A DNA stretch of 64,000 nt from Deltaproteobacteria bacterium (lineage in GTDB: Bacteria > Desulfobacterota > Desulfobacteria > Desulfobacterales > JAUWMJ01): assembly GCA_030638575.1 (NCBI GenBank), contig DAOWEJ010000014.1, forward strand, positions 5,041 to 69,040. The letters are read 5' to 3'. The stretch's first letter is position 1. Every line of letters starts with the position of its first letter. The position numbers and the translations under genes were made by a program. Under the pieces are notes generated by a model. It made no database searches. It was not told where the DNA came from and saw nothing but the letters and a program-made list of their open reading frames with translations. This document shows positions 23,021-24,368 of the stretch, piece by piece.

Positions 23021-23306
23021 AACGCAAACTGCGCCGGAATTTTAGTCTTCAACATCTATTCACACAACATCCGGAGCAAAAGAGAAGGGGCGTCGGGGAA
23101 GCAAGAAAAATATTTTTGAACACAATGCAAATTGCCCCCTATTACCTGAATTTTGCACGAGTTGGAGGATTTTTATTATGAATCAAGAAAAAGATAATGC
23201 TGCAACCCTGAAACCCACTGATTTCCACACCAGTCAATCACTACAGGGATCAGGGAAAGGGGAAACTATGACAACCGGTTGCTGACCCAAAGGAGAAAAG
23301 GCTCAG

Positions 23307-24368
23307 TTGAGCCTGCCCAGCCTCAGGCAGCCATTTGTGGAGGGTTCTATTCAGACCCGTGTGGGATCTGTTCCCCGGATATCTTCCACTTTGGCCCGGG
23401 CCGATCGCCTGGGAAGCATTAAGGCCCGGTGGGGGATAGGCCGGATGCGGTATACTGTAGAACCCGGATTGTATGCCCTCGGGGATCCTGACAAGCAGGC
23501 GCCGGTTCTTGTCACAGCTAATTATAAGATGAGCTTTGACCGGCTGCGTGAGGCCTTGCCCGGCCGTCATGCATGGATCCTGGTTCTGGACACCAACGGT
23601 ATAAATGTCTGGTGTGCAGCAGGGAAGGGAGTATTCGGTACGGAAGAACTGATCCGGCGTGGGGAGTTCAGTAAACTGGAAAATATTGTGGACCACCGGA
23701 AATTGATTCTGCCGCAGTTGTCAGGCCCTGGAGTTGCGGCCCACCAGGTAAAGAAACTATCCGGTTTCAAGGTTATCTACGGCCCTATCAAGGCGATGGA
23801 CCTGCCTGAATTTTTAGATGCAGGGCTAAAAGCAACCCCGGAGATGCGAAACAAGACTTTCACCGTCAAGGAAAGGACTGTTCTTGTCCCTGTGGAACTG
23901 GTCAGTGTCCTCAAGTGGGCACTTATAATACTCCCTGCCTTTTTCTTTCTTGGCGGCCTGGGCGGGAAGGCCGGATATTGGGCCGGCGCATTAAACTACG
24001 GTCTTTTTGCCATAGCTGCATTGCTGAGTGCAGTGGCAGCAGGTGCGGTTTTAACGCCCATACTGTTACCCTGGCTGCCGGGCCGCGCCTTTTCTGTTAA
24101 AGGGCTGGTTGCTGGCCTAATAACGGCGATCATACTTACGGTTTTTCGGGCTGGAAATTTCAGTGATTGGCCGGGCCGGGCCGAAATGCTGGCTTGGTTC
24201 TTAATGATTCCTGCCATTACAGCTTATCTTGCCATGAATTTTACAGGCGCTTCCACTTACACCTCTCTTTCAGGGGTCAAAAAAGAAATGAAGTGGGCGG
24301 TGCCTTTAGAGATTGCTGCGGGTGCAGCAGGTCTATTCATATGGCTGGGATCACGGTTTGTCATTTAA
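23307..24368 (+). CDS. hgcA: mercury methylation corrinoid protein HgcA
   Basis: Hallmark cap-helix motif GINVWCAAGKGVFGT; also WGIGRMRY and VLVTANYKMSFD; C-terminal multi-TM domain. TTG start as in the ORF track; a possible in-frame extension from ATG 23178 through TGA 23283 is discussed in findings. Confidence 0.9.
   Translation: MSLPSLRQPFVEGSIQTRVGSVPRISSTLARADRLGSIKARWGIGRMRYTVEPGLYALGDPDKQAPVLVTANYKMSFDRLREALPGRHAWILVLDTNGINVWCAAGKGVFGTEELIRRGEFSKLENIVDHRKLILPQLSGPGVAAHQVKKLSGFKVIYGPIKAMDLPEFLDAGLKATPEMRNKTFTVKERTVLVPVELVSVLKWALIILPAFFFLGGLGGKAGYWAGALNYGLFAIAALLSAVAAGAVLTPILLPWLPGRAFSVKGLVAGLITAIILTVFRAGNFSDWPGRAEMLAWFLMIPAITAYLAMNFTGASTYTSLSGVKKEMKWAVPLEIAAGAAGLFIWLGSRFVI

Follow-up and report, generated by a model that had tools for sequence, protein, structure and literature searches.

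HgcA is the enzyme that makes the neurotoxin methylmercury. Haft & Gwadz (bioRxiv 2022, 10.1101/2022.07.06.499078; J Bacteriol 2023, 205:e00259-22) proposed that most HgcA proteins are selenoproteins with a CU motif (cysteine followed by selenocysteine, Sec or U) on an N-terminal extension that had been overlooked. In the preprint (10.1101/2022.07.06.499078), all 20 of the genes that were examined could be extended through a single UGA codon, the sequence PCUGP was conserved, forms with Cys-Cys were noted, and the family was added to the prokaryotic genome annotation pipeline (PGAP). Server searches for a selenocysteine insertion sequence (SECIS) failed, and no hairpin was given for HgcA. The selenoprotein proposal is cited in a 2024 PNAS paper on HgcAB (PMC11588087), and a 2026 review (PMC13188914) enters HgcA (NF040863) with the motif CU. 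For HgcA, that review cites the 2008 Global Ocean Sampling paper alongside Haft; the main text of the 2008 paper does not mention a selenocysteine-containing HgcA. Here we describe the hgcA gene in a 64-kb stretch of DNA from a Deltaproteobacteria bacterium of the order Desulfobacterales (contig DAOWEJ010000014.1, positions 5,041 to 69,040; we refer to this whole stretch of 64,000 nucleotides as the window, and coordinates are positions within it). From comparison with related sequences, the UGA at 23283-23285 in hgcA is very probably read as selenocysteine, which would make this hgcA a selenoprotein gene. Because Haft & Gwadz had already published HgcA proteins with the CU motif, the window is a correct rediscovery of a known kind of gene.

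The locus resembles the published cases in that an in-frame UGA lies right after a Cys codon in an unannotated extension, homologs that lack Sec have Cys-Cys, and hgcB, which encodes a protein with a C-terminal Cys-Cys, is adjacent. It differs in the residues around the motif: PCUGP was perfectly conserved in the 20 published proteins, while [G/S]-C-U-P-[K/Q/S] is the form in the window and in most of its clade. Also, the preprint has no SECIS, whereas we define a covarying hairpin (see below).

The gene as it was previously called begins at a TTG codon (23307) and encodes 353 amino acids. This open reading frame is identified by its sequence as HgcA, the corrinoid protein of mercury methylation. 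It matches the NCBIfam family HgcA_corrinoid (NF040863) with 469 bits (the cutoff is 275), and the match covers residues 65-394 of the 396-residue protein that we propose. It also contains a Pfam CdhD domain (3e-10). Residues W145, C146, and K150 (in full-length numbering) are invariant across 44 homologs, and the codon for C146, which is the cysteine of the cap helix, is at 23613..23615 on the plus strand, within a motif that is translated as NVWCAAGKG. Cys146 is the counterpart of Cys93 in HgcA from ND132 and is the ligand of the corrinoid (literature summarised in PMC11588087). The Sec site, at residue 36, lies outside the NF040863 profile, whose first position matches residue 65 of the 396-residue protein.

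Upstream of the TTG, the same reading frame stays open to an ATG at 23178, except for the TGA. The ATG has a Shine-Dalgarno sequence (GGAGG, 23164..23168, plus strand) 9 nt before it. The frame reads MNQEKDNAATLKPTDFHTSQSLQGSGKGETMTTGC, and then TGC (23280-23282) and TGA (23283-23285), so that the codons at 23280..23285 correspond to Cys35-Sec36, with 35 codons before the TGA. Seven more codons (PKGEKAQ) then lead, in the frame of hgcA, into the TTG at 23307. There is an AGGAG at 23291-23295, 11 nt ahead of this TTG. The original prediction had placed the ATG, GGAGG, TGA, TTG, AGGAG, and a hairpin at these positions, and all of them are present in the sequence as it described them. We think that the true start of hgcA is almost certainly the ATG at 23178. 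The full-length coding sequence would then be 23178..24368 on the plus strand, with 396 codons including Sec36 and a TAA stop, and its product would be 43 codons longer than was called.

The support for this gene model comes from other genomes. A protein search found thousands of HgcA homologs. Most of the close ones were called with lengths of 353 or 343 amino acids, and several were called with 396, which is exactly 353 + 43. Five of the 396-residue homologs (P0003, P0009, P0018, P0057, and P0100) have Cys-Cys and align across the entire extension. For instance, P0003 begins with MNQEKDSPAVLKTVDFQTGQPLTRSATGETLTTSCCGQGGKTQLSLPSL, with Cys-Cys opposite the Cys-TGA of the window. Cys-Cys is found at this site in P0016, P0053, and P0113 as well as in these five, and Cys-Cys forms occur in close relatives (83% identity). 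An AlphaFold2 model of P0003, built from a 44-sequence alignment, had a mean pLDDT (predicted local distance difference test) of just 52.6, and even the corrinoid domain was below 50.

We also compared the DNA upstream of hgcA. The comparison set comprised 80 hgcA loci from relatives, each from a different GTDB species, and the window brings it to 81 sequences. The 80 loci are mostly from metagenome-assembled genomes of Desulfobacterales, Desulfatiglandales, and Syntrophales, and their HgcA proteins are 63-84% identical to that of the window. The in-frame DNA upstream of each hgcA, including that of the window, was translated and aligned. TGA is present at the aligned site in 66 of the 81 sequences, 7-8 codons ahead of the old start, and neither TAA nor TAG is found there in any of the 81. 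Among these 66 Sec-type sequences, Cys immediately precedes the TGA in 58 and Pro immediately follows it in 54. The other 15 sequences have CC, CS, or CR at the site or have lost the motif. The TGA also appears to be present in other members of the 90% cluster to which the window's HgcA belongs, most of which were called as 353 amino acids.

The extension has the marks of coding sequence. In nearly all of the Sec-type loci, the frame is open from the TGA back to an ATG, and in 47 of 65 Sec-type relatives the ATG at the head of the extension is preceded by a Shine-Dalgarno-like core (background 10%). In the nearest clade, M-[ND]-Q-x-K-D...LKT[VI]xF is kept at the N-terminus, every insertion or deletion is of whole codons, and substitution rates are lowest at the second codon position, higher at the first, and highest at the third. 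A conserved TGA, an open in-frame extension, and conservation on both flanks together are the usual hallmarks of selenoprotein genes. The original prediction had suggested aligning the orthologs, and the alignment bears it out: there are homologs with Cys-Cys at the TGA site, and sequence is conserved on both sides of the TGA.

In one Sec-type gene (L030, positions 4930-5020 of that locus), a run of seven G's about 75 nt past the TGA seems to contain a frameshift. Because of this frameshift it looked non-Sec in a first pass. The frameshift is probably a long-read homopolymer error in the assembly, and once it was recognised, we counted L030 as Sec-type.

A vicinal Cys next to the Sec seems, from the alignment, to be common but not obligatory. 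Some relatives have a U-x-x-x-C arrangement instead (SQUGPSC in L023 and YMUSSSC in L077) or a C-x-U arrangement (CSU in L004 and CGU in L056). The variant loci (L023, L077, L004, L056, L048, L060, L073, and L014) also include ones with S-U, G-U, or R-U and no neighboring Cys.

The second line of evidence is a hairpin just downstream of the UGA. In bacteria, a SECIS of the E. coli fdhF type, as captured by the bSECISearch criteria, is a hairpin in the coding sequence just 3' of the UGA, with a conserved G in its small apical loop (usually as GU) 16-37 nt after the UGA. The original prediction had proposed as a SECIS the 6-bp hairpin AGGCUC/AGUU/GAGCCU at 23299..23314 on the plus strand, whose stem is 23299-23304 paired with 23309-23314 and whose loop, AGUU, is at 23305-23308. 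We found that this hairpin covaries at a fixed spacing from the UGA, has an invariant G in its loop, and is lost in the non-Sec forms, all of which favor the proposal. The consensus across Sec-type sequences is GGCUC-AGKU-GAGCC, and it begins 13-14 nt past the UGA, or 11 nt in five loci that have a one-codon deletion. The second base of the loop is always G, and most of the loops contain GU. The called start codon (TTG, 23307-23309) takes in bases 3 and 4 of the loop and the base that opens the 3' arm, so the annotated "start" is a Leu codon within the SECIS loop.

All five core pairs of the hairpin are intact in 64 of the 66 Sec-type sequences but in just 3 of the 15 that are non-Sec (Fisher p = 5e-10), which indicates that the hairpin decays once the TGA gives way to a sense codon. 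Run on the 63 distinct sequences, RNAalifold recovers the same five pairs and no others; compensatory double changes occur at three of them (GC to AU, GC to AU, and UA to CG), and just 1 of 315 core cells is broken. If two facultative outer pairs are added to the core, then a covariation score this high occurs in 1 of 500 shuffles, and the share of paired cells is 88%, as compared to 27-52% in registers that were slid along the alignment. The stem also constrains the synonymous sites beneath it, restricting the choice of codon: in Sec forms, the Ser codon is always AGY (57/57, never TCN), the Ala codon is GCU in 57 of 59, and the Gln codon is always CAG (57/57). These preferences are relaxed in the non-Sec forms.

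We also built a covariance model from the alignment, as the original prediction had advised for the region downstream of the UGA. It has a single strong match in the 64-kb window, at 23283-23333, with 61.6 bits; the next best match had 19.5 bits (E = 0.11). The non-Sec loci score progressively lower with this model, or not at all. The hairpin resembles other bacterial SECIS elements in lying within the coding sequence and in having a conserved loop G about 20 nt past the UGA, at a fixed spacing. Unlike the fdhF type, it has five conserved pairs plus one or two facultative ones, a tetraloop, and no bulged U. A second hairpin, which the original prediction had drawn at 23313-23330, can be folded in the window but is not conserved among the relatives: just 37% of its cells are paired, which is no better than in shuffled or slid controls, so we attribute it to chance.

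UGA is a true stop codon in this genome. The window includes prfB (31977-33072, plus strand), which encodes release factor 2 and has the canonical +1 frameshift site CUU-UGA-C at 32043-32049. Its ATG at 31977 opens MSIELKQTIKELSDELEQLKGYL, followed by CUU-UGA-C, and the PCRF and RF-1 domains are in the +1 frame; the open reading frame finder shows only 32185-33072. Furthermore, TGA terminates 9 of the 45 long open reading frames in the window. Given this frameshift site and the TGA-ended frames, UGA is an ordinary stop here, and therefore reading through the UGA of hgcA needs a dedicated mechanism. The frameshift in prfB adds a second case of UGA recoding to the one proposed for hgcA.

Several observations weigh against selenocysteine at this UGA. 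The stem is short (5-7 bp), and when the 60 nt after the UGA are folded as a single sequence, their stability is unremarkable (z = -0.71 relative to shuffles). A scan of 22900-23500 with Rfam at E ≤ 10 gave chance matches only, with no SECIS family. Thus the window's sequence taken alone is not above chance, and the significance of the hairpin comes entirely from the comparison with relatives. None of selA, selB, selC, or selD is in the 64-kb window. Turning to experiments, a short HgcA from ND132, which has the old start and an N-terminal His tag, methylates mercury in E. coli lysates (PMC11588087), so the extension is not strictly required for catalysis. Finally, in the literature that we searched, no HgcA is reported to have been shown experimentally to contain Sec, whether by 75Se labelling or by mass spectrometry.

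Other searches for the selenocysteine system were also negative. SelA, SelB, and SelD were absent among 30 further large open reading frames of the window that were scanned with NCBIfam or Pfam families. ARAGORN, run on the window and on 60 related loci, found no tRNA of any kind, including tRNA-Sec. We also scanned the window for other genes that are interrupted by TGA and did not find a convincing second selenoprotein. The Thermodesulfobacteriota, the lineage of this bacterium, are among the bacteria that are richest in selenoproteins (PMC13188914).

We considered three other explanations for the TGA. The first is that the locus has two products: when selenium is available, Sec would be inserted to give the long form, and without selenium, termination at the UGA and initiation at the TTG or GTG in the loop would give a short and functional HgcA. 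The codon in the loop could serve as a start in 56 of 66 Sec-type loci, Shine-Dalgarno-like cores before it are about three-fold enriched over background (28% vs. 10%), and the short form is active in vitro (PMC11588087). But the constraints on the SECIS loop fully explain why the codon is start-capable, and the enrichment of Shine-Dalgarno-like cores is weak and could be due to the Lys, Gly, and Glu codons of the linker. We consider this explanation unlikely. If it were correct, then the UGA and its SECIS would double as a selenium-dependent isoform switch, which would choose between a long HgcA whose Cys-Sec arm captures mercury and a short HgcA that is also active; we give such a switch a small chance. 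If the switch does exist, then the supply of selenium would tune the efficiency of methylmercury production in situ, or its affinity for mercury.

The second explanation, which the original prediction had raised itself, is that the upstream frame is a separate upstream open reading frame or leader of 35 codons that ends at the UGA, and that HgcA is translated from TTG 23307, either independently or by termination and reinitiation via the AGGAG. The AGGAG is at a good distance from the window's TTG, gene callers choose this start for most of the homologs (giving 353 amino acids), and the short HgcA of ND132 was catalytically active in E. coli lysate (PMC11588087). However, a separate leader would accept any stop codon, and the stop is TGA in 66 of 66 loci, never TAA or TAG. 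The frame always matches that of hgcA, at a fixed distance of 7-8 codons, and the spacer is kept as protein, with Pro after the U in 54 sequences. The Cys-Cys homologs are uninterrupted fusions. At the position of the TTG, 10 of the 66 Sec-type loci have a codon that is not a start (GAG, GCG, GGG, or CAG), and a Shine-Dalgarno-like core precedes this position in 18 of 65, as compared to 47 of 65 at the upstream ATG. Where TTG or GTG is present, it is accounted for by the AGKU of the loop plus the closing G. With a frame that is always in phase, a stop that is always TGA, and neither the downstream start nor its ribosome binding site conserved, we consider a separate leader very unlikely.

Finally, it is extremely unlikely that a nonsense mutation or a sequencing error turned a Cys codon into TGA in a former Cys-Cys extension that is now a decaying remnant: a single base separates TGA from TGC or TGT, and close relatives do have Cys-Cys, but the same TGA is found in 65 other species-level genomes (and apparently in the window's own 90% cluster), the window's hairpin, its Pro after the U, and its upstream open reading frame are all intact, and a decaying remnant would gather further stops and frameshifts.

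We return to selenocysteine insertion, which accounts for the Cys-Cys homologs of the predicted length, the conserved TGA, the conservation of the flanks, and the covarying hairpin; these results agree with the original prediction of an N-terminal Cys-Sec pair. In bacteria, Sec insertion depends on SelB-GTP, which delivers Sec-tRNA(Sec) and binds the hairpin when the ribosome arrives at the UGA. By analogy, we propose that translation of hgcA would start at ATG 23178, using the Shine-Dalgarno sequence at 23164-23168. The hairpin at 23299-23314, with its G-containing tetraloop, would recruit SelB with Sec-tRNA(Sec) at the UGA (23283-23285), and Sec would be inserted in place of termination. The ribosome would then proceed via PKGEKAQ-L... 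into the annotated start of HgcA. The predicted HgcA has 396 residues, and its N-terminal extension carries the vicinal pair of Cys35 and Sec36. Binding of SelB-GTP and Sec-tRNA(Sec) to this particular hairpin is what we would expect from how Sec insertion generally works in bacteria.

What might the Cys-Sec pair do? The N-terminal extension is poorly conserved outside of the Cys-Sec motif. Mammalian thioredoxin reductase ends with a Gly-Cys-Sec-Gly tail, which can form a selenenylsulfide and is a favored target of Hg(II). Like that tail, HgcA would have a vicinal Cys-Sec near a terminus of the chain, with small flanking residues. In thioredoxin reductase, however, the pair is C-terminal, and the protein is a eukaryotic flavoenzyme with a redox shuttle and a 3'-untranslated-region SECIS and is not homologous to HgcA. 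Other counterparts are the C-terminus of HgcB (C94/C95 in ND132) and the C-terminal Cys pair of MerA, which also place adjacent chalcogen ligands on a terminal segment of a protein that handles mercury. Those pairs are thiol-thiol, whereas the pair in HgcA would be thiol-selenol. As summarised in PMC11588087, which cites Smith 2015, the C-terminal Cys pair of HgcB is important for methylation. The rare Cys-Sec dipeptide is also found in SaoL, SaoB, and SaoC from the SAO locus, which share with HgcA a link to organometallic chemistry. The SAO proteins have unrelated folds and loci, and there are no SAO genes in the window. By analogy to these systems, the Cys-Sec pair of HgcA may be a high-affinity site for the capture and transfer of Hg(II), or it may form a redox-active selenenylsulfide. 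It may also work alongside the C-terminal Cys-Cys of HgcB and feed Hg(II) to the methyl-corrinoid.

The genes around hgcA in the window are arranged as arsR-hgcA-hgcB-CDF. The hgcB ferredoxin gene (24381..24728, plus strand) matches NF040864 with 126.6 bits (cutoff 99). Its protein has the expected features of HgcB: the gene adjoins hgcA, there are two CxxCxxCxxxCP motifs, and the sequence ends with ...PPKCC. At the GVGC site, the HgcB of the window has Cys, not Sec. Across the 74 HgcB sequences that we detected in the window and the related loci, none had Sec at the corresponding GVG[C/U] position; all had Cys. Directly upstream of hgcA is a gene for an ArsR/SmtB-type metalloregulator (22661..23020, plus strand; PF01022 HTH_5, 8e-10; NF033788, 52.4 bits, just below the cutoff of 55). 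In locus L016, the same C-terminal sequence of the regulator is found in frame upstream of hgcA. Directly downstream of hgcB is a gene for a cation efflux protein of the cation diffusion facilitator (CDF) type (24804-25871, plus strand). A large, near-perfect palindrome occupies 22567-22652, with 40-nt arms that are 85% complementary and a 6-nt spacer, and its end lies 9 nt ahead of the called ATG of the arsR-type gene (22661). ArsR operators are typically much smaller than this palindrome, which may be a terminator, an element like a miniature inverted-repeat transposable element (MITE), or a regulatory structure.

The original prediction had cautioned that the ribosome binding site of the upstream ATG lies in a repeat and so might be accidental. 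The repeat is real: it is 33 nt long and inverted, with 21045-21077 being the reverse complement of 23140-23172 (91% match), and the copy at 23140-23172 overlaps the Shine-Dalgarno region of hgcA. But this does not undermine the start, because the N-terminus MNQ.KD and the Shine-Dalgarno sequence with ATG recur in relatives that do not have the repeat. There are only two copies, and the repeat is absent from all 80 related loci, so we do not consider it to be part of the hgcA system. The other copy (21045-21077) sits in the intergenic region between pstS and pstC, where, on the minus strand, it too precedes a GGAGG-N6-ATG. The two copies bracket pstS and arsR.

We noticed several other features of the window. 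When the whole window was scanned with Rfam at the gathering thresholds, the only match was a thiamine pyrophosphate (TPP) riboswitch (RF00059, 36279-36387, minus strand, 74.4 bits). It is upstream of an ABC transporter operon on the minus strand, which encodes an ATPase (35466-36344), a permease (34742-35479), and an NMT1/THI5-like binding protein (33780-34751). The operon probably imports thiamine or a pyrimidine precursor. An unusual cluster on the minus strand (43755-50397) may be a defence or signalling island: it comprises an IS200-like Y1 transposase domain fused to a DnaA-C helix-turn-helix (43755-44729), an LRR-Roc-COR protein of 1082 amino acids (45132-48380), and a TIR-domain protein (49024-50397). 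Two other regions (467-13991 and 59486-61788) contain several FabF-like ketosynthases, FabG, a LolA-like protein, and B12-binding radical SAM enzymes. The open reading frame at 5516-6865 is above the cutoff for TIGR04072 ("lipid biosynthesis B12-binding/radical SAM protein"). Together, the lipid-type genes of these two regions hint at a specialised pathway of lipid or aryl-polyene-like type.

This locus serves as confirmation, and its implications were already raised by Haft & Gwadz. The additions here are an independent and larger comparative set (66 of 81 sequences), a SECIS hairpin that is supported by covariation, the recognition that the motif of this clade is C-U-P rather than PCUGP, a corrected gene model (23178-24368), and the observation that the NF040863 profile does not cover the Sec site. 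The window also shows that the Sec feature can readily be recognised from raw sequence. If native HgcA does have a Cys-Sec pair, then gene callers systematically truncate HgcA (the closest homologs are mostly 353 or 343 amino acids), and most database entries, as well as recombinant constructs with the old start, are missing a probable Hg(II)-binding element. In that case, the antagonism between mercury and selenium in the environment could hit the enzyme directly.

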